Origin: a virus
Lineage: Duplodnaviria > Caudoviricetes
Reading direction: 5' to 3' (one strand)
DNA: 64,000 nt
Virus record (IMG/VR): IMGVR_UViG_3300037400_001134
Coordinates: 11,059-75,058 of that record
Below are positions 2,069 through 55,366 of the stretch, piece by piece. The translations under genes and the position numbers were made by a program. The notes under the pieces were generated by a model. It was not told the origin of the DNA. It was given only the letters and a program-made list of their open reading frames with translations, and made no database searches. Position 1 is the first letter of the stretch; every line of letters begins with the position of its first letter.

Positions 2069-2250
2069 AAGTTGCAGAATTACTTGGAGCCATAGGAGAA
2101 AATCAAGATTACTATATTGTGACCGCTGATAGAAGGCCTGAAGTAATAGATGTGAAAACGGCGGTAGAACATGATGCGAATGTTTTAGGAATTGTAGCAG
2201 TAAGAGAAAACCTTATAAGGATAGAAACTAATTTCAAGTGGTATTTATGA
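2065..2250 (+). CDS. hypothetical protein (61 aa)
   Basis: SD GGAGG; ATGA overlap. Confidence 0.65.
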   Translation: MKVAELLGAIGENQDYYIVTADRRPEVIDVKTAVEHDANVLGIVAVRENLIRIETNFKWYL

Positions 2251-2264
2251 GAGGAGAATAGCAA

Positions 2265-2474
2265 ATGATAGTAGTAAAGCCAGTAAGAGGAAATCATGTT
2301 ATAGAGGTCACCGATTTTGGTAAATCAATGTATGGGGGTTGGTACTTAAACTTCTATGACCCTACATACGATAAGTATGACGGCATAAGAAGAGATACAC
2401 TCCGTGAATTATGTGCGTGGTTAGGTGTAAGTAGGACAGCCTTAACTAGAGATGTAAGGAGATTAGATAACTAA
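2265..2474 (+). CDS. hypothetical protein (69 aa)
   Basis: SD GAGGAG. Confidence 0.7.
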   Translation: MIVVKPVRGNHVIEVTDFGKSMYGGWYLNFYDPTYDKYDGIRRDTLRELCAWLGVSRTALTRDVRRLDN

Positions 2475-2476
2475 TA

Positions 2477-2524
2477 TTCCAGTTGAAAGGGTACTGCATG
2501 AGCAGTACCCTATAATTGTAGACA
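2477..2524 (+). promoter_or_regulatory. early-class promoter P3 with 10-bp inverted repeat
   Basis: TTGAAA 2483-2488, 17 bp, TACCCT 2506-2511; AGGGTACTGC-ATGA-GCAGTACCCT. Confidence 0.7.
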
Positions 2525-2557
2525 ACAACACACACATATGCGAAAGGAGATACCGAT

Positions 2558-2818
2558 ATGCAGAGAAGAAAATCATTATCCGAGAAGGATATCAGAACAG
2601 TTTTAGCCATCATTGAGAGCTAACGTGAACAGAACCATTATAACTATGAGGAGATGAACAGAAATATGGGCAGCCTTACAATCGAAGAGATGATGGCGCT
2701 AAATAAAAAGCTAGAAGATTGGTACCATAAAGATGATGTAGTAGATGAACTTGAGGATGTAGATATGGATGAATATAGGGAATCCTATAATGATTACATC
2801 CATTCATATATCTATTGA
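2558..2818 (+). pseudogene. 86-codon early gene interrupted by an in-frame TAA (2621-2623)
   Basis: Strong SD GAAAGGAG; MQRRKSLSEKDIRTVLAIIES*REQNHY...YIHSYIY continues in the same frame after the stop. Confidence 0.6.
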
Positions 2819-2835
2819 TAGAAAGGAGAACCGAT

Positions 2836-3135
2836 ATGAAACTTTACAGAGACAAGGAAACAGGAAAGAAGTTATATCCAGTTTGTTCATGGGAAAAGAA
2901 TCAGCACAAGTTATACAATGCCATAGATAGGGCACATAATGCAGTATCGGACCTTCTTGAAGATAAGAATGCCTCATATGAGGATATAGACAAAGCAGAA
3001 GAGTGGGTGACAGAGATAGAAAGGCTAACGAGTATATTCGATAGCCATGTAGCCCCAAATGGTATAGTCTATGCGTTATGGGAAGATGCACAGAAAATAA
3101 AAGATGTAATATGGGCATACAATGCCAGACATTGA
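2836..3135 (+). CDS. hypothetical protein (start revised from 2815 to 2836)
   Basis: SD GAAAGGAGAACCGATATG, nearly identical to the initiation region at 2543-2560. Confidence 0.75.
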   Translation: MKLYRDKETGKKLYPVCSWEKNQHKLYNAIDRAHNAVSDLLEDKNASYEDIDKAEEWVTEIERLTSIFDSHVAPNGIVYALWEDAQKIKDVIWAYNARH

Positions 3136-3151
3136 GAAAGGAGAACCAATA

Positions 3152-3373
3152 ATGACAAAAGCATACGCAATAGGGGATTACAGTTACAAAATGGTAAGTG
3201 AGGCCATAGAGATGGTCAATCAGAACTGCGACAATGAGGGCGAAAAGAGGATACCCATGAAGTTCTACCATCTATATAATGCAGATGATAATGGGTGGTA
3301 TGTAGAGTGTCTGCATGAAGAGGATGAACCAAGATTAGAGAGACACCTTAACTATATATTTGGTATAGAGTGA
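3152..3373 (+). CDS. hypothetical protein (start revised from 3122 to 3152)
   Basis: SD AAAGGAG 8 nt before ATG 3152. Confidence 0.7.
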   Translation: MTKAYAIGDYSYKMVSEAIEMVNQNCDNEGEKRIPMKFYHLYNADDNGWYVECLHEEDEPRLERHLNYIFGIE

Positions 3374-3482
3374 CTGGAAAATAAGGCGGGCGAAAAGACA
3401 ACCTAATCCATTTAAAAATCAATATATAGAACTAGGCAAATATAAACCATCACCATAATATAGAAATCAATCTAAATCATAG

Positions 3483-3509
3483 AGGCCATGTAGCAATACA
3501 TGACCTTTT
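3483..3509 (+). terminator. probable intrinsic terminator
   Basis: AGGCCATGTA-GCAA-TACATGACCT (one mismatch) then TTT. Confidence 0.55.
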
Positions 3510-4045
3510 AGTGTATACCATATGTCAATCTGTAGAAATCAAAAAGAGGGCGGTATAAGAGTCCTGTCCATCTATACCAATTATTATAACCAAATACACT
3601 ACCATATATAATATCTAAAGAAACCATCTAAATACCATTGTTTAGCCATTTATGCCATGCCTTTATTTGGCTCGTATCTAGTGCCATTCAGTAGCCATCT
3701 AGCCATTTCGCTATTTCCATTCTTAGACCATATGCCCTACAACCCTAATCATATAGACTATCACTAGCCTATCACCCTGGTGCCGTCCGACAAGATTTGC
3801 AAGCTATTTTTCAATTTTTTAGTAAAAGGTTGCATTTTTTGTCATGCCTTTATAGGCCATTAGGGGCTATCCCAAACTCCCTCATTCCCTTTATGCATTT
3901 TGCACAAATGGCACCAGGCCATTAGCTTTGCAGTCCTCTTAGAGGTTTTAGCGGGCGTCCTTATGAGGGAAAAGTGCCGAAAAAAAGGGGGTTGGTATCC
4001 GACTGGAAAAAGCCCGCCAAAATTTGTTCGTCAAATTGCACAATA

Positions 4046-4085
4046 AACCTGTTGAATGGTTATAGGGGCTAGAGTACCATAAAAT
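4046..4085 (+). promoter_or_regulatory. early-class promoter P4
   Basis: CCTG-TTGAAT 4052-4057, 17 bp, TACCAT 4075-4080; ATGGT...ACCAT partial dyad. Confidence 0.65.
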
Positions 4086-4121
4086 AAAAAACAGCACACA
4101 CATGAAAGAGAGGAAACCAAA

Positions 4122-4343
4122 ATGACAAAAGCACAGAGATGGGACCATTTAGTAAAGAGATTTGAGAGCTTCACCGAATTACAGAGAAGGGACCTAGATG
4201 TAGAGAAGTGGGATGATGCTATAAACAAGATGTACGGATGGATAATCGCCGCATCAGAGTTCAATCCTGATTTAGAAGATGATATATCAACCCTTTGGAC
4301 AGAGACTTATAATAGGGAGTTTAAGCAGAGGTATATGAAGTAA
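4122..4343 (+). CDS. hypothetical early protein (73 aa)
   Basis: SD GAGAGGA; own promoter and terminator. Confidence 0.8.
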   Translation: MTKAQRWDHLVKRFESFTELQRRDLDVEKWDDAINKMYGWIIAASEFNPDLEDDISTLWTETYNREFKQRYMK

Positions 4344-4374
4344 TATCCATCTACCCCATTTATATAGAAGAAAC

Positions 4375-4402
4375 AGGGTTGCCATTAGTGGCAGCCCTTT
4401 TT
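4375..4402 (+). terminator. intrinsic terminator
   Basis: AGGGTTGCCA-TTAG-TGGCAGCCCT-TTTT. Confidence 0.8.
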
Positions 4403-4588
4403 ATTGCATATTTTGACCTATGGCCATTAGAGGCCTATGGCCATTATCCATTTCGCCCATTGCCCCATTGGCCCATTCCTCTACAGGCCCTTTGCTGACG
4501 TAGGCCATTGCAGTCCCCTGGCCCCACACACAGGTGGTGTGGTGGTATGTGAGCTTCGCTCACAGAGGATCTGCTTGCACACAATGTA

Positions 4589-4615
4589 ATTGTAAACAAT
4601 AACATTGTTTACAAT
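4589..4615. promoter_or_regulatory. palindromic operator-like site
   Basis: ATTGTAAACAAT-AAC-ATTGTTTACAAT perfect 12-bp arms; half-site TTGTAAACAAT recurs at 4701-4711. Confidence 0.6.
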
Positions 4616-4700
4616 GAATATACATAAAAATGATAGATTTATGTAAAAAGTGTATATCTACTATATAATGCAAAAAATTGAAAACTTTTTAAATTTGTTG

Positions 4701-4729
4701 TTGTAAACAATATCAAGTTATGATAATAT
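4701..4729 (+). promoter_or_regulatory. sigma-A-like promoter of the CC/GG-free gene
   Basis: TTGTAA-17-TAATAT, overlapping the operator half-site; alternative TTGTTG-18-TATGAT. Confidence 0.5.
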
Positions 4730-4857
4730 GATATTGAGCTTCAATGAAGCGTGAGCTTTGAAGCGTGTTCTACATATTGCACTTTGACAAACATAGACAC
4801 TTACGTGTCTATCATATGGAAACGTAAATATCACAATATGAAACGGAGACAAGTATC

Positions 4858-5439
4858 ATGGAAAAAACAACTATTTTTAGCAACTATTCACTCAAGCAAG
4901 CAACATTCGATAACACAAACAAGCGTGTTGCAATGACAGACAAAGAGCTTGCAACGCTCAAAGCACTTTGCAAGACAAAAACGTTTGGTCTTGTATCGCT
5001 AATTGATGATATCGACAATATTGCAACGTTCAATGGTGACTACGATTGTAAACTAGCTCAAAGCGGAAACGCAAAAGAGCACACATTAGTTTCGATATGG
5101 AGTCGTAACGCTGTAAAGCACGTTACAAAAAAGAGCGATTATCGTGATTTTGGGGTTCGTTTTCACGTAGACAAGCTAGCAAAGCTTTATAGCAATAAAG
5201 ACTTTGCAAAGCTGATAAAAGATAGCAGCGTGCAAGTATACTCACATAAAGATGGATTAGAAATCAGATTTACGTTTAACACGTTGTCAGATGCTATCAA
5301 GTTTATAGCTGATATCGACAACGCAACAAAAGAGACTAGCAAAGCAAAAGAGCAAAAGAGCAAAGCAAAAGAGACTAAAGCAAAGCAAAGCAAAACAAAG
5401 TCTAAAGAGACTACAACAGAAAAGAGCATCACAGCATGA
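4858..5439 (+). CDS. proline-free, Lys/Thr-rich protein with basic C-terminal tail (193 aa)
   Basis: SD GGAG; no Pro in 193 aa; tail KETSKAKEQKSKAKETKAKQSKTKSKE; lies inside the CC/GG-depleted island. Confidence 0.85.
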   Translation: MEKTTIFSNYSLKQATFDNTNKRVAMTDKELATLKALCKTKTFGLVSLIDDIDNIATFNGDYDCKLAQSGNAKEHTLVSIWSRNAVKHVTKKSDYRDFGVRFHVDKLAKLYSNKDFAKLIKDSSVQVYSHKDGLEIRFTFNTLSDAIKFIADIDNATKETSKAKEQKSKAKETKAKQSKTKSKETTTEKSITA

Positions 5440-5503
5440 TAATAACTTTTCTAGTCATCACTTTTCTAATCTTTTTTGCAATTGCTAGATTGACTCGATA
5501 AAG

Positions 5504-5539
5504 AAAAAGAGCTACTCAAAAAAGAGTAGCTCTTTTTTT
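5504..5539. terminator. bidirectional intrinsic terminator
   Basis: AAAAAGAGCTACTC-AAAAAA-GAGTAGCTCTTTTTTT. Confidence 0.85.
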
Positions 5540-5876
5540 GTGCTTGTAAAACGTGTTCACTATAATGCTATTTTATGCGATTTTTCGATTTAAGACGTTT
5601 TTGCGTTGCACCTGATAAAATGTTCGATAGTGATATTTACGTTGCTAAAATCGCTAAATTTTACGATTTAAGACTATTGACAAAAATGCATTTATATGTT
5701 ACACCACCCCCTACCCGTACATACGTTCGATTGCTACGCAAGCTCTGATGTGAGCTTGGACACACAGGTTAGGGGTTTTCATAAGACCGTCACAAGTCAT
5801 TGAGGAACTTACCATACGTGCAGGTCGTGGATTTTCTACCAGGACAGATTTTCTAAATACCGTGGGCGCTCAAAGT

Positions 5877-5905
5877 TGTAAAAATGACCGACTTTATGTT
5901 ATAGT
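5877..5905 (+). promoter_or_regulatory. promoter for the packaging operon
   Basis: TTGTAA, ~18 bp, TG-T-TATAGT extended -10; the ATGTTATAG motif recurs at several promoters. Confidence 0.5.
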
Positions 5906-5933
5906 ATGTTTACAGAAAGCGAGGAAGGATTTT

Positions 5934-6305
5934 ATGTCGCCGACACCTATTACAAAAGCTAGAACAATAGCAAATGCACTGAATCAGATATATGGAACTC
6001 ATATAGTGATAAATACGTCACAGTTCTTTGGAGGCGAAGGTAAACTTGTCAGGATGTATGTTATTAAAGATGCGTACTATTATGGGGGTAAGAGTGCGTA
6101 TTCTGACAAGGAGCTGTTTAAAACGGCTTCGGGGATATATGCACTGATGTTTATGGTGGATATGCTTGATGCCTTCAAAGGAAAAGAGGTTACTGACAGA
6201 GGTAATGAAGGTTATCAGAATGTTTTAGCTAGGAAGAATGGGTTGGCTAACATAGATTACATGGTTAAAACTTATTTAGTAGGAGGACAGGAAGATGACG
6301 ATTAA
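5934..6305 (+). CDS. hypothetical protein upstream of terS (start revised from 5862 to 5934)
   Basis: SD GAGGAAGGA before ATG 5934; overlaps the terS start. Confidence 0.75.
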   Translation: MSPTPITKARTIANALNQIYGTHIVINTSQFFGGEGKLVRMYVIKDAYYYGGKSAYSDKELFKTASGIYALMFMVDMLDAFKGKEVTDRGNEGYQNVLARKNGLANIDYMVKTYLVGGQEDDD

Positions 6306-6792
6306 CTCACAGATACCAGATGATGCTTCACCGAGAACGCTGGATAAATTGCTTACAGGAACTTGCATTACACATGATGGCTCAAGAATCTCACCTAAAC
6401 AGGATAAATTCATCAACTTGTACATCAAGTATTCTGACCCGGCGCAGGCTGCAGAAGAAGCAGGGTACATGGTACGCAATACTCGTAAAGACAAGAGGGC
6501 GGCCTATGCTCGTAAGGGCAAAGAGTTGCTTAGGGATGACACTATTAGAAATGAAATTGCCGCAAGGATGGATGACATTAGGGGAGCTGAAATTGCGGAT
6601 GCTAAAGAGGTGCTCATCTATCTCACAAGAGTTATGAGAGGAGAAATTAAAGACCAGTTTGATTTAGATGCTCCGTTACAGGAAAGAACTGCGGCGGCTA
6701 AGGAGTTGAATCGCAGACTCAGAGAATTAGAGCAGGATAAAGAAATGGGTGGAACTGGTAAAGAAGTTCATCTCATACTAAGGAGAGAGTGA
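6295..6792 (+). CDS. terS: terminase small subunit
   Basis: KQDKFINLY...AQAAEEAGY HTH and IADAKEVLIYLTRVMRGE...RTAAAKEL motifs typical of SPP1-like TerS; directly upstream of TerL. Confidence 0.9.
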   Translation: MTINSQIPDDASPRTLDKLLTGTCITHDGSRISPKQDKFINLYIKYSDPAQAAEEAGYMVRNTRKDKRAAYARKGKELLRDDTIRNEIAARMDDIRGAEIADAKEVLIYLTRVMRGEIKDQFDLDAPLQERTAAAKELNRRLRELEQDKEMGGTGKEVHLILRRE

Positions 6793-33074: not shown

Positions 33075-33659
33075 ATGTATTATGTGTATATGCACAAGGC
33101 GCCAAATGGAAAGATTTATGTAGGTCAGTCAAGACATCCAGTATCAAGATGGGGTGATGGAGGCGGGTATTATCAAAACGAAGAATTTACAAGAGATATA
33201 GAAATTTATGGATGGAACGCCATCGAACATTATATATTGAAAGCCTGTCAGACTTTAGAAGAGGCACTACTTTATGAGGCGTTGTTTATTGTACACTTCG
33301 ATAGTGAAGAAAACGGTTATAACTTCACACAATATAAGAAAAATGTTATAGAGGGTGATAGCAATAGAAAGCCTATTAGTGATTATCAGTCGATTCTAAA
33401 TTCAAATTATTCTGATTTAGAGCTTGACCTTGAAGATTCCCAGTCAAAAAATATCTTTGTAAAGAACGGCATACCTATATCAGAGGCGAAACACTTAATA
33501 AATGAATGGATATATAGTGATAGAGACCGCAATATCTTGATAGACAGATTTTTAAATGGCATAGACCTTGCTGAGTTGGCGAATAAATATGAGATGTCTT
33601 TATCTCAGATTAAGCGAGTGATTGCGTCTGGTCAAAGTGATTTAGAGAAACATATTTGA
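33075..33659 (+). CDS. GIY-YIG endonuclease fused to a sigma-4-like HTH
   Basis: YVYMHKAPNGKIYVG...SRW...EALLYEALFI; C-terminus paralogous to the 32500 HTH. Confidence 0.8.
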   Translation: MYYVYMHKAPNGKIYVGQSRHPVSRWGDGGGYYQNEEFTRDIEIYGWNAIEHYILKACQTLEEALLYEALFIVHFDSEENGYNFTQYKKNVIEGDSNRKPISDYQSILNSNYSDLELDLEDSQSKNIFVKNGIPISEAKHLINEWIYSDRDRNILIDRFLNGIDLAELANKYEMSLSQIKRVIASGQSDLEKHI

Positions 33660-43914: not shown

Positions 43915-44577
43915 ATGAGCAAATATTTAATTCACACCTGTGAGAAGAGGAAGTGGTATGTTGATGAATATTTAGTGCCATCCATGATTAAACAAGGTAT
44001 AGATAACACAAACATACTAATCTATAATGATGAACACAAGGAAGGCTGTTTAAAATCATTTATCTCATCATCTGAAATGATAACTACTTTAAGACAAGGG
44101 GTGTGGCATTTACAAGATGATATTATTATAAGCTCAAATTTTAAAAAGGTGACAGAAGAGTTTGATAAGGGTATAGTATGTGGCTTCTGTAGCTATTATA
44201 GTGAGGATGCTCCTATAGGAATTAGACCGATAAATGATATGTGGTATTCATTTCCGTGCATAAGGATACCGAATGTAGTTCTTAAAGGATTTGTGAAATG
44301 GATAAATTCTCAGAATACACAAAATAAATACAGGGTATATATAGAACAGAACAAGTTTGTGGATTTATTGTTTAGAGAATATGTTACTACTATATATGAA
44401 GATAAACTAATACATAATCTGTGCCCTAATATCGTAGATAATGTTGATTACTTATTAGGTGGCTCAACTATAAATTATATAAGAGACAAACAGCCTGTAT
44501 CATTATATTTTCAAGAGAAAAATCTTATAGAGGAATTAAAACATTCCTTAGAAAATACTATTTACAACAAAAAATAA
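43915..44577 (+). CDS. GT-A fold glycosyltransferase-like protein
   Basis: YLIHTC..R, HLQDD DxD-like motif, WYSFPCIRIP, PNIVDNVD. Confidence 0.6.
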   Translation: MSKYLIHTCEKRKWYVDEYLVPSMIKQGIDNTNILIYNDEHKEGCLKSFISSSEMITTLRQGVWHLQDDIIISSNFKKVTEEFDKGIVCGFCSYYSEDAPIGIRPINDMWYSFPCIRIPNVVLKGFVKWINSQNTQNKYRVYIEQNKFVDLLFREYVTTIYEDKLIHNLCPNIVDNVDYLLGGSTINYIRDKQPVSLYFQEKNLIEELKHSLENTIYNKK

Positions 44578-44650
44578 ATATGTTATAGTATGTTTGTAGT
44601 TGAGCAACACAAAACATTTTAAACGTCTAAACGACAGAAAGGTAAAAACG

Positions 44651-45370
44651 ATGGCAACAAAAGAAACAAAGAAATCAGTAAACGAAGTTGGTATTATCGG
44701 TCAGATGTACGAGGAGCGAAAGTCTAAAAAGCTCGGTGTTCTTGAAAGCAGAAATGAGAAGTTTAAAACTCTTATGATGCGAGATAATAACGGAACATCA
44801 TTCACAGTACAGTATTCCACATTCAGAAGTAATTGGAGAAAGTATCAGGGCGAAGAAGTTATTCAGACTTCCGAACAAAAAGAAGAAGTCAAGCAGGCTG
44901 CTAAAGAGGAACTCAAGGAAGCAAAGAAAGAGATGGCAAAGTCTACAGAGACTACAATTAAGTTTAGTAGACAGGAAAGAATTGATGCTATAAAAGCATT
45001 AAGGACAGTTCTTAAAGATGCTATCAAAGATGCTAAGTATCCTCTTGAGCTTGTGAATCTTGCAAAGGGTGGCACAGTAGTGAAGCTCAAAGGCAAGAGA
45101 AGAACAATGTTTGAGATATGGTTACCTCTGAGATATCCGGATGTATATTCATTCAGAATGAGAGAGGACATTGCCAAGTATGTAGATATTCCTGAAGAGA
45201 AAGAATATCTTGAAAAGGATGTAAACTGCATCAGATTTAGACCTAAGAGAGAAAGATTTGATGACGTACTTAAAGTAGTATTAACAGCGGTAGAAAAGTT
45301 TGTAGAAGATACAGACTTTTTACATAAAGACGAAGAAAACGAAAAAACGAAAGAAAAGGAGAAAAACTAA
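44651..45370 (+). CDS. hypothetical protein (start revised from 44600 to 44651)
   Basis: SD GAAAGGT; own promoter TTTACA-17-TATAGT at about 44561-44589. Confidence 0.75.
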   Translation: MATKETKKSVNEVGIIGQMYEERKSKKLGVLESRNEKFKTLMMRDNNGTSFTVQYSTFRSNWRKYQGEEVIQTSEQKEEVKQAAKEELKEAKKEMAKSTETTIKFSRQERIDAIKALRTVLKDAIKDAKYPLELVNLAKGGTVVKLKGKRRTMFEIWLPLRYPDVYSFRMREDIAKYVDIPEEKEYLEKDVNCIRFRPKRERFDDVLKVVLTAVEKFVEDTDFLHKDEENEKTKEKEKN

Positions 45371-45398: not shown

Positions 45399-46111
45399 GT
45401 GAGATACGCTGATAAGAAATATAAAGAAAAATCTTATACAGTATTATGCATAAGTGCCCAAATAATAAAATCTATGTTGGTTTAACTTGTCAATCTGTTG
45501 ATGGTAGATGGAATAGAGGTTCTGGTTATAAAACTCAAAAGCTATTTTACAGAGCCATTCAAAAATATGGGTGGGATAATATTGAACACATTATTGTGCA
45601 GGATAAATTAACATTAGATGAAGCTTGTAAAATGGAGCGCAGTTTAATAACTCAGTATCAATCAAATAATTCTAAATATGGATATAATCTTACTGATGGT
45701 GGTGAGGGAATATCGGGCTATCATCTTAATGCTGAACAATTAGAACATCATAGGCAAGTTTCTTTAGGTAGAAAACATACACAAGCCACTAAAGATAAGA
45801 TTTCAAAATTAAATAAAGGCAGAAAATTAAATCTTACTGATGAACAAAGAAAAGCTTGTGCCGAAAGAGCTAGGAAATTGCCACATTATAAAAAGACTGA
45901 TGAGCAAAGACAACAGATGTCAGAGGCATATGAAAAGCGTAGAGATAGACCTGGTCATACTAAACCACATTCAGAAGAGGCTAAACGAAAAATAAGCGAA
46001 GCAATGAAGAAAAGACATCCTATTTCAGAAGAAACGAGACGAAGATTGAGTGAGGCTGCAAAGCGACAGTGGGAACGACAAAAACAAAATAAAAATAAAG
46101 GAGATATATAA
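45399..46111 (+). mobile_element. free-standing GIY-YIG/NUMOD3 homing endonuclease gene, 1-nt frameshift near the 5' end
   Basis: HKCPNNKIYVG...RWNRG...ACKMERSLI plus H-S/T-x-E-x-K-x-K-I-S repeats. The upstream frame (GTG 45399: VRYADKKYKEKSYTV) joins after a single-base loss at about 45444. Confidence 0.8.
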
Positions 46112-47027: not shown

Positions 47028-49325
47028 ATGCCGTTATTTGATATATCTGAGACAAGCTCTAAAGCTAAAGATGTGGAGCTATTAAAGAAATCAAAGACAA
47101 GGGCGAAAGCAATTACCACTACTAAATCTAGTAGTGGTAATCTTGTCAATAAGATAAAATCCATTGTCGCAATGGTAGAAACACATCTCGGTAAATATAG
47201 AGATGAGACATTACTGATACAAGATGAGGAGACATTACATAGCTATATAGATAAATGTATAGAAAATGGCATATATGCAATAGATACTGAAACAACAGGA
47301 TTAGACCCACTACTTGATATGTTAGTAGGTGTTGGTATATATACCCCTGGTGAGAAAACTACATATATACCTATAAATCATTTATCTTATATCACAGGTC
47401 AGAAAGTAAAGAATCAGTTGCCTGCAGAAATAGTTGGTAAAGAGCTTGCAAGACTTGATGGTATAGACAGTGATATGTTTAATGCTACATTCGATATCAG
47501 AGTGTTAAAGCATGGTACTGGCACAAGATTAAAATGTACATGGGATTCATATTTAGCTTCAAGATGTTTAAATGAGAATGAGCCTAATAAAGGTCTTAAA
47601 AAACTTCATCTGAAATATGTATTAAGGGGTGAAGAGGATGCTTTTAAGTTTGATGAGTTGTTTAAAGGCATAAACTTTGCATATATACCTATAAACACAG
47701 CCGCATTATATGCCGCTCATGACCCTAAGATTACATATGAATATGCAGATTATCAGCGAGAGGTATTCAGAACAAGGGAGAATTTGAAAGATGTGTATTG
47801 GGTATTCAAGAATATAGAAATGCCTTGTGTTGATGCAGTAGTAGATTTGGAAGATACCGGTGTAGCTTTTGATATCGAGTATAATGAGGAACTTAAAAGA
47901 AAATATCATGCGATACTTGATGAGAAAGAAGCAAACTTCCATAAGCTCTGTGAGATGTACAAAGATGAAATTGATAATTATAGTGGTACAGTAAAACTAG
48001 ATACCCCTATAAATATTCAATCAGTACCTCAGTTACAAGCTCTACTATATGATATAGCAAAGATAGAACCAGTTATAGATAAAAAGACAAAGAAACCAAC
48101 AAGAAGCACATCAGAAGAGACTCTACAGAAACTAAAGAATCCTTTAGCAGATGCAATACTGGAATATCGTTCATTCTCAACATTAGTAAGTACATTTATA
48201 GATAAACTTCCAGAGTGTATAAACCCTAATGATGGTCGAATACATTGTAAGTTTAATCAGTATGGTGCAGATACAGGACGATTTAGTTCACAAGACCCAA
48301 ACTTGCAGAACATTCCATCACACAATAAAGATATCAGAAAAATGTTCAAAGCTACAGATGGCTACATAATGATGAGTGCTGACTACTCACAGCAGGAAAT
48401 CAAAGGTATGGCACAGATGTGCGGAGATGAGGGTATGATAGAAGCATTTAGACAAGGTAAAGACTTCTATGCTGAGATTGCATCAGTAGCATTTGGATAT
48501 CCTTATGAAGAGTGTCGAGAGTTCAGACCTGATGGTACAACTAATCCTGATGGTAAAGCAAGACGAGCCCAAGCAAAGAGTATTCTGTTAGGTATAAACT
48601 ATGGTAGAGGTGCTGCCAGTATTGCTGAACAGATAGGTTGTACTAAAGCAGAAGCGGAGAAGATAAAAGATGATGTATTTACAGGATTCCCTGCTATAGC
48701 AGAGTTTGAACGTCAGAGTATAGAGATGGCTGAAACTGTAGGATATGTCACAACTCTTTGGGGTAGAAAAAGAAGATTGCCGTCAATGATGTTACCTGAC
48801 TATGAGTTTCAATGGGAAGAAAGTAAATTACCTTTTAATGATGACCCTCTTGATTTTGATGATGAGGAAGAAGCTCCAGAGATTCCTGATAGTGTTATCA
48901 ATAAGTATCTCAGAAAGCTATCTAAATGTTGGGGTAGTCAAAAACGAAAGGTGTTTGAAGAAGCTAGAGCCGATGGCATAATGATTATAGACCATACGAA
49001 AGATAAAGACTACACAAAGATAGTTAATGCTAGAGTGCAAGGTACCGCAGCGGATATGTCAAAGTTGGCTATGATAGCTCTCAATAAAAATGAGAGATTG
49101 AAAGAGCTAGGATTTAGAATGTTGATACCTATACATGATGAGATACTAGCAGAATGTCCTGAAGAAAATGCGGCAGAAGTCATACCACTATTTGCAAAAA
49201 TAATGTCAGAAGCCCCAGGTGAAAGATTTGTAGTGCCTATTTCCTGCGACGTTGAAGTGACACACCGTTGGTATGGTAAGAAGTATCATCTTGTAGATGG
49301 AAAGTTAGTTGAGGAGACAGAATGA
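47028..49325 (+). CDS. DNA polymerase, family A (3'-5' exo + pol)
   Basis: AIDTETTG, FNATFD, YAAHD; TGRFSS..PNLQNIP, SADYSQQEI, RAQAKSILLGINYG, IHDEI. Confidence 0.95.
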   Translation: MPLFDISETSSKAKDVELLKKSKTRAKAITTTKSSSGNLVNKIKSIVAMVETHLGKYRDETLLIQDEETLHSYIDKCIENGIYAIDTETTGLDPLLDMLVGVGIYTPGEKTTYIPINHLSYITGQKVKNQLPAEIVGKELARLDGIDSDMFNATFDIRVLKHGTGTRLKCTWDSYLASRCLNENEPNKGLKKLHLKYVLRGEEDAFKFDELFKGINFAYIPINTAALYAAHDPKITYEYADYQREVFRTRENLKDVYWVFKNIEMPCVDAVVDLEDTGVAFDIEYNEELKRKYHAILDEKEANFHKLCEMYKDEIDNYSGTVKLDTPINIQSVPQLQALLYDIAKIEPVIDKKTKKPTRSTSEETLQKLKNPLADAILEYRSFSTLVSTFIDKLPECINPNDGRIHCKFNQYGADTGRFSSQDPNLQNIPSHNKDIRKMFKATDGYIMMSADYSQQEIKGMAQMCGDEGMIEAFRQGKDFYAEIASVAFGYPYEECREFRPDGTTNPDGKARRAQAKSILLGINYGRGAASIAEQIGCTKAEAEKIKDDVFTGFPAIAEFERQSIEMAETVGYVTTLWGRKRRLPSMMLPDYEFQWEESKLPFNDDPLDFDDEEEAPEIPDSVINKYLRKLSKCWGSQKRKVFEEARADGIMIIDHTKDKDYTKIVNARVQGTAADMSKLAMIALNKNERLKELGFRMLIPIHDEILAECPEENAAEVIPLFAKIMSEAPGERFVVPISCDVEVTHRWYGKKYHLVDGKLVEETE

Positions 49326-50179
49326 ATTTTGCAGTATTTATATTATCACATAAAAGAGTCGAAAGAGTTGAGACATTAGATACTTTACAGAAAGCAGGAT
49401 ATACAGGTAAAATATATATTGTAGTTGATGATGAAGACCCTCAGCTTGATATGTATAAGTCAAGATTCAATGATAGGGAAGATGTTGAGTTATTAGTATT
49501 TGGCAAACAACCTATGATTGATATTGCTGACACTGTATATCCTGAAAAGAAAAGAAGTTCAGCATTATATGCCCGTAACTTTATAGAGAGCATGGCAAAT
49601 ATATTTAGATTAGATATATTTGCCATGATGGATGATGATATAACATCATTAAGATTTAGATGGGTAGAAAATAATTCTGTAAAGTCACAAGTTGTAAATT
49701 CTACAATGGATGAAGTGTTTGAATATTATGGGCAGTATATGTTAGATGCAGATATTGCCACAACATCTTTTCCATTCAGTATGTTCTATATTTCAGGTAC
49801 AAGTGGATTAGATAAAAAGATTACAGAAAGCAGACATACATACCAGATACACATAAGAAATACAAATTTTCCTGTTGATTGGGTGTCTGTAATAAATCAA
49901 GATACAATTACACAGTTACAGACAATGCAAGTAGGATATATATGGTGGTCAATTCCTTATTTAGTGTTTGACGCAGAACCAATGAATAGTAAACCAGGTG
50001 GATTAAAGTCTGTATATGATAGTATAAAAGATTTTGATATGGCATTTCTCGCAGTAATTTCTAATCCTAGTTGTTGTAAAGTAGCTTATTCTAGTGGTCC
50101 TAGAAGTACAATGCAGATAAAAGAAGATAAGCACACAAGTTATCCTATGATTGTTAGTGAAAGGTATATGAAACTATGA
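49322..50179 (+). CDS. glycosyltransferase, TET-associated (TAGT/GREB1-like) type, copy A
   Basis: ILSHKR, GYTGKIYIVVDDED, YARN, MMDDD, KPGGLKSVY. Confidence 0.75.
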   Translation: MNFAVFILSHKRVERVETLDTLQKAGYTGKIYIVVDDEDPQLDMYKSRFNDREDVELLVFGKQPMIDIADTVYPEKKRSSALYARNFIESMANIFRLDIFAMMDDDITSLRFRWVENNSVKSQVVNSTMDEVFEYYGQYMLDADIATTSFPFSMFYISGTSGLDKKITESRHTYQIHIRNTNFPVDWVSVINQDTITQLQTMQVGYIWWSIPYLVFDAEPMNSKPGGLKSVYDSIKDFDMAFLAVISNPSCCKVAYSSGPRSTMQIKEDKHTSYPMIVSERYMKL

Positions 50180-51015
50180 TTGTGTATATAAAAACACATG
50201 GCAGACCAGGTAATCAGTTGACTTACAATACTCTACGAGAAGCTGGCTACACAGGAGATATAGTCTTAGTCATAGATAATGAAGATGAGTGTGGTGCAGG
50301 ATATTTAGAGTTCGTGAAACATGATGACAGACTATGGTTGCACATCTTTGATAAACAAAAATTGGTAGATGAAATAGATAGTGGCACAAATATTCCTAAA
50401 AGAGATGTGAATTTATATGCTTGGGTTGCTTGTGAGAGATTTGCAAAACAAGATGGTAATGATTTCTTCATAATGGCAGATGACGATATAACAAGATTTA
50501 GGTACAGATATCTTGAAGATAATCATTTAAAGTCAACACCTATAACACAGAATCTTGACAGAGTATTTGAGCATATTCAGAATTATATGGAATGCTCCAA
50601 TATAGCCGCTGCCAGCACAGGAATACCTCAAATGTACTTCTCTAAAGAGTTAGACGAAAATCTGTGGAAATACAGAGTGGTGTATCAATTCGTATTCAGA
50701 AATCCTAAATTTGATATGAATTGGGTGTCTGAATATGAAGAGGATATAATAACATCCATCAATATGTCAAAAGAGGGTAAGTATGTCACTTGTCTACCAA
50801 TGATTCAGCATGATGCAATAGCTTTAGGTAAAGCATCTGGTGGTATGAAGGATATGTATGATGAGAATAATACTAGATTTAGATTAGCTGAATATGGTCA
50901 CATATTTAATCCTTCATGCGAGATAATGAATTTCTATAAAGGTAAGTGGATAACGAATATCAAGAGAAATAATGCTTTTCAGAAATTAGTGAGTTCCAGT
51001 CGTAAAAAGAAATAA
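50176..51015 (+). CDS. glycosyltransferase, TAGT-like, copy B
   Basis: KTHGR, GYTGDIVLVIDNED, MADDD, EYEED, SGGMKDMY. Confidence 0.75.
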   Translation: MIVYIKTHGRPGNQLTYNTLREAGYTGDIVLVIDNEDECGAGYLEFVKHDDRLWLHIFDKQKLVDEIDSGTNIPKRDVNLYAWVACERFAKQDGNDFFIMADDDITRFRYRYLEDNHLKSTPITQNLDRVFEHIQNYMECSNIAAASTGIPQMYFSKELDENLWKYRVVYQFVFRNPKFDMNWVSEYEEDIITSINMSKEGKYVTCLPMIQHDAIALGKASGGMKDMYDENNTRFRLAEYGHIFNPSCEIMNFYKGKWITNIKRNNAFQKLVSSSRKKK

Positions 51016-51068
51016 GATGTTATATAATATTTAAGTACGAGAGATTTAAAAAACGAGAGGAGAAACAC

Positions 51069-51563
51069 ATGAAACAATTATTTGCTGATGACAGCGCAAA
51101 GAAAAATCCTATGGGGGATGACACAAAGTATTCTAGGGCAATACGAGTTCCACAGTATGAACCTAAGAGTGAGAAACCCAGTCTTGAATCAGTTTATGAC
51201 CTTACGAAGTATAGTAAGCTCATGGCTAGAATCAACAAATCTAATGTATCAGAAGAAGAAAAGAAATTCTTAAAATTCGCCGCTACAAGACATATTGTAT
51301 TCACTTATAGCAAGATAGCAGATTATTATGCCCATGCAAGTAAGGAGATGCAGGAGCTGATGGAAGAGTCAGCATTAGTAATTATTGATATTGATGATGC
51401 AATAGCTAATGGTTATGTAGCTCTTTCAGAGAAGATGCAACAACTTATTGATGAGGAAAAAGCTAGAGATGCAAAGGCAAAAGAGGCAAGTAATATTCTG
51501 AAAGCTCAAAGAGAATTAGCAGAGAAGAAGGCTAAGGAGAAGAAGGATGAGCAGAAGTCTTGA
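51069..51563 (+). CDS. conserved helical protein associated with TAGT genes
   Basis: KYSRAIRVPQYEP...FLKFAATRHIVFTYSKIADYYAHAS.EMQ.LMEESALVIID.D.AI..GYV; recognised as a recurrent neighbour of such GTs; function unknown. Confidence 0.6.
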   Translation: MKQLFADDSAKKNPMGDDTKYSRAIRVPQYEPKSEKPSLESVYDLTKYSKLMARINKSNVSEEEKKFLKFAATRHIVFTYSKIADYYAHASKEMQELMEESALVIIDIDDAIANGYVALSEKMQQLIDEEKARDAKAKEASNILKAQRELAEKKAKEKKDEQKS

Positions 51564-52419
51564 TGATTTTGCAGTATTAGTTTTAACTCATGGCAGAGCA
51601 GAGAATGTTCCTACATATGGCACATTAAGAAAATATGGATATACTGGCAGAATAATAATGGTAGTAGATGATGAAGACCCAGATTTAGAAAATTATATGT
51701 CAGTATATGGTAAAGATAATGTGGCAGTATTCTCTAAAGATGAAGTTGTAAAGAAATTTGATACAATGGATATTCCTAAGCACCGTAAATGTATCGTGTA
51801 TGCTAGAAATGCGAGCTATGATATTGCAGAACGACTTGGTCTAAAGTATTTTGCACAGTATGATGATGACTATGTGACAAATCCTTATAGATGGCAAGAG
51901 GGAGAAACTTTATACAGAAGTACACTAGCAAATCTTGATGAAGTATTTAAGGCACACATAGATTTTCTTGAAACTAACCCTAACATATATACTGTAGCGT
52001 TTGGTCAAGCAGGAGATTTTATAGGCGGGGTAGGTAGTAATCTTGTGAAACATAAGTGGTTGAGAAAGGCCATGAATAGCTTTATATGCAAGACTGATAG
52101 GAGAATACAGTTTAATGGCACTATAAATGAAGATGTGAATGCCTATGTATTAAATGGTTCAAGAGGACAGATATACTTAACATTTGATTTTATGATGATT
52201 GACCAAGCTGAAACACAGACTCAAAAAGGTGGTATGGCAGACTTATATTTAGGTGTAGGTACATATCAAAAATCATTTTATACAGTCTTATGTAGTCCAT
52301 CATGCGTTAAAGTAGGTATGATGGGAGATAGACATTATCGTATGCATCACAACATTGATTGGGATAATGCAGTTCCAAAAATAATATCAGATAGATATAA
52401 ATTAAAGGAGGAAAAGTGA
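51547..52419 (+). CDS. glycosyltransferase, TAGT-like, copy C
   Basis: VLTHGR, GYTGRIIMVVDDED, YARN, QYDDD, FNGTINEDVNAY, TQKGGMADLY. Confidence 0.8.
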   Translation: MSRSLDDFAVLVLTHGRAENVPTYGTLRKYGYTGRIIMVVDDEDPDLENYMSVYGKDNVAVFSKDEVVKKFDTMDIPKHRKCIVYARNASYDIAERLGLKYFAQYDDDYVTNPYRWQEGETLYRSTLANLDEVFKAHIDFLETNPNIYTVAFGQAGDFIGGVGSNLVKHKWLRKAMNSFICKTDRRIQFNGTINEDVNAYVLNGSRGQIYLTFDFMMIDQAETQTQKGGMADLYLGVGTYQKSFYTVLCSPSCVKVGMMGDRHYRMHHNIDWDNAVPKIISDRYKLKEEK

Positions 52420-54391: not shown

Positions 54392-54454
54392 GTTACTTTT
54401 TAGCATTGACTTAATTAGTATGGTGAACTATAATGTGTGAAAGGAGATACTTAT

Positions 54455-55366
54455 ATGAATAACACCACATTATATGTTCACATTACTCCATCTAATAAAT
54501 ATTATATAGGCATAACTCAAAAACCTATAAAAGAAAGATGGGGTGCTAATGGAAAAGGATACTATGGTCAACAATTATTTTATCGTGCAATTAAAAAATA
54601 TGGATGGAATAATATTCAACATATAATACTAATGGAAAATTTAGATAGGGAAGAGGCGTGTGAGTGCGAAAAATATCTTATAGCTAAATATCATACTACG
54701 GATCCGAGATACGGATATAATATATCTTATGGTGGTGATATTGTGCAAACAGGTTTAGTTAGGAATGAAGCTCAAAGAAAACATATTAGTGATGCACATA
54801 AAGGTTTACCACTTACACAGCCTCAATTAGATAATTTAAAATTGATACATCAAAATAATACAGGAAAACATTTATCAGATGAACATAAGCAAAAGTTAAG
54901 TAAGGCACTTACAGGTAAAAAGAGGAGTGAGGAATCAAGAAAGCATATTAGTGAGGCTAAAAAAGGACATATTCCTTGGAATAAAGGTAAACATATGTCC
55001 GAAGAGACTAAAGAAAAGTTAAGGCAAGCTAATCTAGGCAACAGATTATCCGAAGAAACAAAGCGGAAGATTAGTGAGTCAAATAAGGGTAAAAGGTCAG
55101 GTATAAAACTATCAGAAGATACTCGAAACAAGATAAGTGCTTCCAATAAAGGTAAACACGCCTACAATAAAGGAAAGGCTATGTCCGAAGAAACAAAGAA
55201 AAAATTATCCATAAGTATTAGAAAAAGTCTGAAAGATAAAGATTTTTCAGGAGCTAATAATGGTTTTTATGGCAAGCATCATTCACCAGAAACTATTGAG
55301 AAAATACGAAAAGCTAGTATTGAACGGGCTGCGAAAGTTAGAGAGGAGAAATCATATGGCGGTTAA
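54455..55366 (+). mobile_element. GIY-YIG/NUMOD3 homing endonuclease (start revised from 54437 to 54455)
   Basis: LYVHITPSNKYYIG...ERWG...ACECEKYLI; many NUMOD3 repeats; own promoter TTGACT-17-TATAAT at about 54405-54433. Confidence 0.88.

Follow-up and report, generated by a model that had tools for sequence, protein, structure and literature searches.

The first-step-transfer DNA of phage T5 carries no EcoRI sites. Among the described systems, this segment and the leading regions of T7-like phages offer the nearest comparison for the locus presented here: a segment of about 1.15 kb almost devoid of the dinucleotides CC and GG (hereafter “the island”), found in a phage genome from a bovine gut (rumen) metagenome. 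The genome is the IMG/VR virus record IMGVR_UViG_3300037400_001134 (75,058 bp, rated complete), and the stretch analyzed, hereafter “the window”, comprises 64,000 nucleotides corresponding to bases 11059–75058 of the record; positions are given in window coordinates, negative ones lying to its left. By analogy with T5 and T7-like phages, the island would be a short, first-acting segment with a host-type promoter, take-over or anti-defense genes, and no nuclease sites. It differs from them in that the ban concerns bare dinucleotides on both strands and reshapes the encoded proteins, which have no proline and minimal glycine and tryptophan. It differs also in that the terminase families of the phage suggest headful packaging.

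A second term of comparison is the under-representation of short words read by defense systems, in the form of restriction-site avoidance or of the depletion of protospacer-adjacent motifs (PAMs), which is reported for phage genomes (PMC6286503; PMC4246573; PMC12174588, the last for a type I-F PAM). The genome under study clearly carries restriction footprints of this kind, including against GGCC and CCGG. Indeed, GATC occurs five times against 246 expected genome-wide (0.02 of expectation), and CGCG, GGCC, and CCGG are found at 0.09, 0.34, and 0.46 of expectation, respectively. We class the island as a variant of motif avoidance. Known cases are genome-wide and partial, whereas the avoidance in the island is near-total, acts at the level of the dinucleotide, is confined to one sharply bounded cassette beside the CC-richest DNA of the genome, and reshapes proteins.

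Finally, the island resembles morons and acr-aca operons. As in morons, its own promoter and terminator lie between two phage genes and its composition is deviant; as in acr-aca operons, a strong promoter is accompanied by an inverted-repeat candidate operator (Table 1), and relatives carry small acidic cargo genes that vary. Unlike in acr-aca operons, the conserved gene comes first, and no Aca-type repressor with a helix-turn-helix (HTH) and no known Acr were detected in the island. Unlike in both systems, the island sits at one fixed place in every relative and has an operator box held in common with core phage promoters.

The CC-free run extends from 4524 to 5611 (1087 nt), while the next longest in the whole genome measures 386 nt; one CC is found at 5611 and the following one at 5704. 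The same segment overlaps the genome's two longest stretches without GG, 5254–5758 (504 nt) and 4567–4818 (251 nt). These values agree with the hand counts of the original prediction, made on the letters of the window, according to which CC was absent from 4526–5610 and occurred once before 5704, GG was absent from 4569–4817 and 5256–5757, and the pol gene had about 10 CC per 600 bp (we counted 10 in 47041–47640). In 1087 nt, about 23 CC are expected from the genome frequency and 28.7 from the local base composition, against 0 observed, and the lowest CC count among 20,000 shuffles was 12. Considering CC and GG together, the island holds 13, while the 1155-nt windows of the genome have a mean of 72.4 (standard deviation 14.4) and a minimum elsewhere of 41.

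The purge is also evident once the encoded protein is taken into account. Given the sequence of the 193-aa protein, its gene has 0 CC against 5.4 expected and 9 GG against 16.4. Within the open reading frame (ORF), GG is found only in the codons of Gly44, 60, 70, 99, and 133, in that of Trp81, and at the ATG|G junction; the same placement, and the absence of proline from the protein, had been noted beforehand and were reproduced. The G+C content of the island (33.5%) is ordinary for the genome. The odds ratio of CG is 1.15 in the island and 0.47 in the genome, that of GC 1.86 and 1.14, ACGT is enriched 11-fold, and ACG/CGT 3.5- to 5-fold. The CG enrichment put forward earlier (28 in 4741–5340 against 4 in 47041–47640) was also found on recounting.

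The original prediction explained this composition by strong DNA-level selection against CC and GG within one transcription unit. To assess the explanation, we compared every homologous locus for which DNA was available, and in 9 of the 10 loci the CC/GG content was not normal. The purged loci encode proteins with 91% (L008), 78% (L004/L009), 75% (L006), 73% (L007), 66% (L015), and 50% (L014) identity to that of the window, and L016 and L045 are purged too. All eight independent related loci for which enough DNA was available have kept the purge, even where protein identity falls to 50%, with 1 CC in 1136 nt in L015 and 0 CC in 1274 nt in L014. In L020, where the small terminase TerS is 69% identical, a 1.4-kb island lies in the same place (runs of 494 and 976 nt without CC and of 968 nt without GG) and encodes a remote homologue of the 193-aa protein (hhalign E 8e-5) and an unrelated 106-aa gene. 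Among relatives, the island measures 1.0–1.5 kb, with extra genes in some, and over nine islands pooled CC/GG stands at 0.14 of expectation.

The non-coding parts of the islands, which are 47–70% identical and bear lineage-specific insertions, each have 0 CC and 1–3 GG against 9–16 expected. In the coding sequences, 11–33% of sites differ and 31–62 codons have changed synonymously, yet CC and GG together remain at 6–10. This is below what is obtained by redrawing the changed codons from phage usage (P 0.001–0.18 per pair, <0.05 in five of six). The purge also takes in about 155 nt ahead of the conserved −35 as well as the DNA that follows the terminator; avoidable GG and avoidable CC have been lost to about the same degree in the main clade. 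The extra ORFs in the islands of relatives (83 aa, L008:1930-2181; 106 aa, L020:3774-4094; 65 aa, L015:907-1104) encode acidic proteins unrelated to the 193-aa protein, with 0 Pro, Gly, or Trp each, and have no CC or GG; they are candidates for variable cargo, possibly with anti-defense functions.

Because the purge persists in relatives despite heavy sequence divergence, the ban is upheld by continuing selection and does not derive from a recent import. The proposed selection can be recognized at synonymous sites, in non-coding DNA, in the DNA that precedes the promoter and that which follows the terminator, and in the cargo genes; both strands are affected in the main clade. Moreover, the ban is tied to the locus rather than to the protein fold. 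Of two distant homologues, both with acidic rather than basic tails, one (L013:217-771) remains free of CC while its GG content is normal, and the other (L046:341-925) is unpurged, with near-normal CC and GG; therefore, the fold does not demand the purge. Two further explanations of the composition were rejected: under deaminase-type mutation pressure, the expected products (CT/TC and AG/GA) are not enriched, while a preference for optimal codons leaves the non-coding purge unexplained, codon use being only partly similar to that of the capsid gene.

We then considered how the island is connected to the rest of the genome. The TTGTAAACAA box is found at 4590, 4605, 4701, and 5906, and further copies lie at −4076, −3105, −1933, −1195, and −330. 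In at least five early cassettes, the box directly follows a −10-like TACCTT, and an inverted box follows the −10 of the packaging-operon promoter. As the box is common to the island, early, and packaging promoters, the island is wired into the phage's own regulation, which suggests that one regulator controls all three. The early cassettes have a −35 (TTGAAA/TTGATA) and fixed CC in ATTCC and TACCTT; the island promoter is canonical and CC-free. The idea that the island has its own promoter, palindromic operator, and terminator was borne out as far as the sequence elements are concerned, but the operator box is not private to the island. The palindrome, the terminator stem, and the bracketing repeats (GGTGGTGT at 4533 with ACACCACC at 5701, and ATGTGAGCTT at 4547 and 5748) were all located where they had been reported.

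All genes of the phage are on the + strand. The small early genes, driven by about 10 near-identical promoter cassettes, are followed by a CC-rich non-coding block, the island, an ACCACCC motif, repeats, and the packaging operon, which comprises a conserved promoter, an unknown gene, the small terminase (PF03592), the large terminase (PF04466), an SPP1-type portal, and structural genes. The block to the left of the island is made of CCATT/GGCCATT repeats: when the 64 kb are ranked by CC in 200-nt windows, the top 12 all begin within 3551–4451 and span 3551–4650, immediately left of the CC-free run. Of the GGCC sites, 12 of the 26 of the genome fall in 2135–4520 and 7 in 4422–4520, mostly in GGCCATT repeats on one strand. 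On the other side, the ACCACCC core, invariant in 7/7 loci, repeats the left-edge GGTGGTG in inverted orientation, and the right edge ACACCACCCCC holds the only CACCACC of the genome. Between ACCACCC and the packaging-operon promoter lie 2–5 copies of TTTTTATAAnGACCGTG-type repeats, also present in L004, L006, L007, L016, and L020, which may be recognition sites of TerS. The position of the island, downstream of the early cassettes and upstream of ACCACCC, the TerS-site-like repeats, and terS, fits a chromosome end, although this is suggestive only.

The explanation that we favor, and that we put forward tentatively, is that the island is a hardened, first-expressed regulatory or anti-defense cassette which escapes host nucleases reading GG or CC, similarly to the first-step-transfer DNA of T5. 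It would be an autonomous accessory cassette that, besides a host-type promoter, the shared operator box, and a terminator, holds a single conserved orphan protein; relatives add small acidic proteins. Selection would strip the CC/GG step from it, so that GG/CC-dependent host nucleases, such as restriction enzymes of the GGCC, CCGG, or CCWGG type and CRISPR effectors whose PAM is NGG or CC, could neither cut the cassette nor take spacers from it. Its products, a probable regulator and anti-defense proteins, would be made before the remaining genome is exposed. Such a cassette would lie at the last-packaged, first-entering DNA end, the terminase would cut next to the ACCACCC edge, and the CC-rich block would mark the border to later-entering DNA, as in T5. 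An NGG or CC PAM would lead to just such a strand-symmetric ban at dinucleotide level. The escape from restriction is decided by the location of the motif in the first-injected region, and not by its presence elsewhere or its copy number in the genome (PMC12455610).

Several observations weigh against a hardened cassette. No single enzyme requires a ban as wide as one on bare dinucleotides, the genome as a whole shows no depletion of GG and CC (0.91 and 0.99 of expectation, respectively), and 4-bp palindromes are plentiful in the island (ACGT 11, TCGA 7, AGCT 10, TGCA 12). Furthermore, the adjoining block is the densest GGCC/CC region of the genome, so a cut there would expose the island unless the block is protected or follows it into the cell. 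The families of TerS and TerL, which are those of headful phages such as SPP1, and the circular assembly of the related genome G002 (107-nt overlap) keep a fixed first-entering end hypothetical. Lastly, no relative of known function was detected for the proteins; the 193-aa protein found no match in Pfam, PHROG, or phage records.

The agent reading CC/GG could instead belong to the phage. In this case, TAGT enzymes would introduce a glycosyl-type hypermodification in CC/GG contexts, and the island would stay unmarked, being readable by the unaided host RNA polymerase or spared by modification-dependent nucleases; its product would then activate the CC-bearing early promoters. We judge this unlikely, even if the genome has part of the necessary equipment. 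Three TAGT glycosyltransferase paralogues (PF20691, E 1e-21 to 2e-35) are encoded at 49322–52416 and 43915–44574 in the replication module, where they lie, with a ParB-like C-terminal fragment (51069–51560), between polA and the clamp gene, and the three TAGT genes are also present in both complete relatives, G001 and G002. The contrast between the fixed CC of the early cassettes and the CC-free island promoter, and the CC-rich block next to the island, would agree with such a modification. Known phage TAGT systems act post-replication in short contexts, GpC[C/T] (PMC8256090) or NTC/NTG (PMC13229309), and the clusters of TET/5mYOX, C5-methyltransferase, and TAGT genes (PMC8256090; bioRxiv 10.1101/2023.12.21.572611; PMC13229309) resemble the present one in the three TAGT genes with their ParB-like partner; a modification of this type could define a “blank” zone. 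These described contexts, however, do not fit a CC/GG ban, and GCT, a target of the described methyltransferases, has 22 copies in the island. Moreover, six-frame searches of the genome gave no match to a 5-methylpyrimidine dioxygenase (TET/5mYOX, PF12851, at E up to 10), although a divergent phage 5mYOX may evade this profile (PMC13229309), nor to a C5-methyltransferase (PF00145) or a thymidylate-synthase-type hydroxymethylase (PF00303). Thus, of the two mechanisms that the original prediction had derived from DNA-level selection, the selection itself stands, but the one based on modification has no visible writer. One distant homologue keeping only the CC ban, and another keeping none, also count against it. 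Glucosylated T4 DNA is transcribed normally by the host polymerase, which is a further difficulty.

A factor reading CC or GG on single-stranded nucleic acid, such as a toxin that modifies or cuts mRNA or single-stranded DNA at the dinucleotide, appears to us less probable still; a variant would be selection for a structure-free, decoy-free mRNA with the Shine-Dalgarno permanently open. Sense-strand CC is indeed the most strictly avoided feature family-wide, as in the CC-free L013 with its normal GG, the Shine-Dalgarno is the sole avoidable GG regularly retained, and plasmid leading regions are reported to be tuned for translation, not for motif depletion (PMC13478746). Conversely, the purge extends over DNA upstream of the −35 and after the terminator, codon use does not merely follow that of the highly expressed capsid gene, and the roughly equal removal of GG and CC in the main clade, with cargo genes that have neither, fits a double-strand reading. 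A physical reason, for instance a mechanical or protein-binding segment beside the packaging site, the exclusion or attraction of a coating protein, or a chromosome-domain boundary, is improbable. It would account for the sharp edges marked by inverted GGTGGTG/CACCACC, for the vicinity of the CC-rich array and the TerS-site-like repeats, and for an oligonucleotide signature that deviates as a whole, beyond CC/GG. We know of no DNA-binding or packaging function that needs a kilobase without GG/CC, the length and content of the island differ among relatives, and the cost to the encoded proteins argues for the protection of genes, not of a spacer. The least credible explanation, to which we give hardly any weight, is a recent import from a biased genome, or an effect of chance or protein composition, with no selection on dinucleotides. 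The alien signature and the moron-like promoter and terminator would be expected of an import, but the island occupies the same place in all relatives with the ban intact while flanks and synonymous sites have diverged, the lineage-specific insertions and extra genes are purged too, and the regulatory boxes are those of the phage's own promoters. No genome is known to have CC/GG at 0.03–0.14 of expectation, and no shuffle came near the observed count. The probability that is left goes to readers of CC/GG other than those listed.

The purge suggests that the CC/GG step is read by some agent in the infected cell, which the island must escape. A ban that removes proline and minimizes glycine and tryptophan is a very large selective footprint with a sharp address and, being held through sequence turnover and imposed on any gene in the locus, it gives direct access to an interaction that sequence would not otherwise reveal. 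If a host defense is the reader, phages harden a specific cassette and not the genome, and the orphan proteins become candidates for counter-defense or master regulation. If it is the phage's own modification, the sequence context of the orphan glycosyltransferase system is revealed. It is also conceivable, but in our view doubtful, that dinucleotide-blank starter cassettes are a general, undescribed phage device: an agent, which could be the orphan TAGT-linked chemistry of the phage or a widespread host factor, would act on CC/GG elsewhere, while the blank unit, readable or unattackable first, would bootstrap the early cassettes through the TTGTAAACAA box. If general, the rule could find use in the search for the first-acting genes of uncultured phages.

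The 193-aa protein belongs to a small family. Among 5.8 billion cluster representatives, 19 homologues were found (48–100% identity), and a profile search of 1.84 billion representatives retrieved only four clusters, all of this family. No protein of the cultured-phage collection matched, and no relative was found in 185,579 species genomes, which therefore give no prophage clue to the host; the nearest cultured relatives of the large terminase TerL are in phages of Blautia and Clostridium. The protein has 0 Pro and 2.6% Gly, against 4.0% and 7.4% in the proteome reference. In the family, proline is absent from all members but one, glycine is found at four invariant sites, and Trp81 is invariant. 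The AlphaFold model (predicted local distance difference test 73, predicted template modeling score 0.68) combines an alpha/beta domain about 157 residues long with a disordered K/S/T/E/Q tail.

Searched with this model, Foldseek returned nothing at E <= 0.001 in PDB or BFVD, the best VIA-align score of all chains was not significant (Z 4.7), and all ESM Atlas scores were below 0.9. The predicted model contains no classical HTH; the protein may nevertheless have a DNA-binding fold of a new kind. Among the weak fold matches is the C-terminal domain of T4 MotA (5jlt_A, Z 3.9, root-mean-square deviation 4.0, 102 aligned residues; 6k4y_M, Z 4.2; neither significant), and a MotA match in BFVD has an E of 0.043, above the 0.001 cut-off. 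We treat this likeness, which depends on the model, as a lead only. MotA would be comparable as an early protein acting via a shared promoter box; in the early cassettes, the TTGTAAACAA box lies downstream of the −10-like element and, unlike with MotA, does not replace the −35. A comparison by hhalign of the island protein family with the 256-aa unknown protein encoded at 44600–45367 revealed no relationship.

The elements of the island and its surroundings are reported in Table 1. The hexamers of the island promoter were taken directly from the sequence, and the promoter scan gives an overlapping register (4704–4732). This promoter is the only upstream element conserved across all six aligned loci. 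The left-edge GGATC (4567) includes one of the five GATC of the genome and is kept in 6/6 aligned relatives.

TABLE 1 Features of the island and adjacent DNA, in window coordinates
Feature	Position	Strand	Basis or remarks
CC-rich non-coding block, CCATT/GCCATT repeats on top strand	3373–4121	+	CC 51, GG 34 in 749 nt; repeat families D3, D7, D9
GGCC/CCATT-saturated block, with terminator hairpin 4375–4398, ending in left inverted repeat GGTGGTGTGGTGG (4533–4545)	4344–4545	+	CC 29 in 202 nt; 7/26 GGCC sites of genome
CC/GG-purged island	4546–5700		1 CC and 12 GG in 1155 nt; counterparts purged in L004/L009, L006, L007, L008, L016, L020, L014, L015, L045
Left-edge hairpin TGTGAGC-TTC-GCTCACA, then GGATC	4548–4571	+	Sequence; alignment of relatives
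Perfect palindrome of two TTGTAAACAA boxes (ATTGTAAACAAT-AAC-ATTGTTTACAAT), candidate operator	4589–4615		Inverted repeat I13
Island promoter: −35 TTGTAA (4701–4706; also a copy of the TTGTAAACAA box), 17-nt spacer, extended −10 TG-n-TAATAT	4701–4729	+	Read from sequence
Shine-Dalgarno GGAGA, among the few GG retained	4845–4849	+	Sequence, GG positions
Gene for the 193-aa orphan protein	4858–5439	+	Alpha/beta domain (~1–157) and basic K/S/T/E/Q low-complexity tail; 0 Pro, 5 Gly, 1 Trp
Terminator: 14-bp perfect stem between A run and T run, could act both ways	5504–5537		Inverted repeat I7
CC/GG-free non-coding tail, direct repeats ATTTT(T/A)CGATTTAAGAC at 5580 and 5658	5538–5700	+	Repeat D15; conserved in L008
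Right edge ACACCACCCCCT	5701–5712	+	Core ACCACCC; candidate terminase cut site or boundary signal
Repeats of ATAAnGACCGTG type	5713–5875	+	Alignment; candidate TerS binding sites
Conserved packaging-operon promoter TTGTAA-18-TATAGT, then inverted box ATGTTTACA	5876–5915	+	Promoter scan, alignment
Conserved unknown gene (ATG 5934 by alignment; listed ORF from GTG 5862) and small terminase gene (6295–6792)	5934–6792	+	Family search, alignment

Two readings of the edges were dropped. If the GGTGGTG/CACCACC edges were Chi sites, their orientation would shield the DNA outside the island, not inside, and an invertible segment between the inverted repeats finds no support, the orientation being identical in all loci. 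TGGTGG is strongly strand-biased and occurs 40 times on the + strand, about three times the expectation from composition, against 2 occurrences of its complement.

The island DNA is single copy in the genome; the terminal repeat suggested in the original prediction would thus have to be collapsed in the assembly. Neither the island nor the 20 kb around it has a DNA match in cultured phages. The Rfam scan of 4000–6400 gave sub-threshold matches only, and there are no tRNAs. Elsewhere in the genome, several genes for homing endonucleases (GIY-YIG with NUMOD3, and one with matches to homing-endonuclease PHROG families) lie at 45446–46108, 54437–55363, and 33075–33659, spread across the replication and accessory modules.

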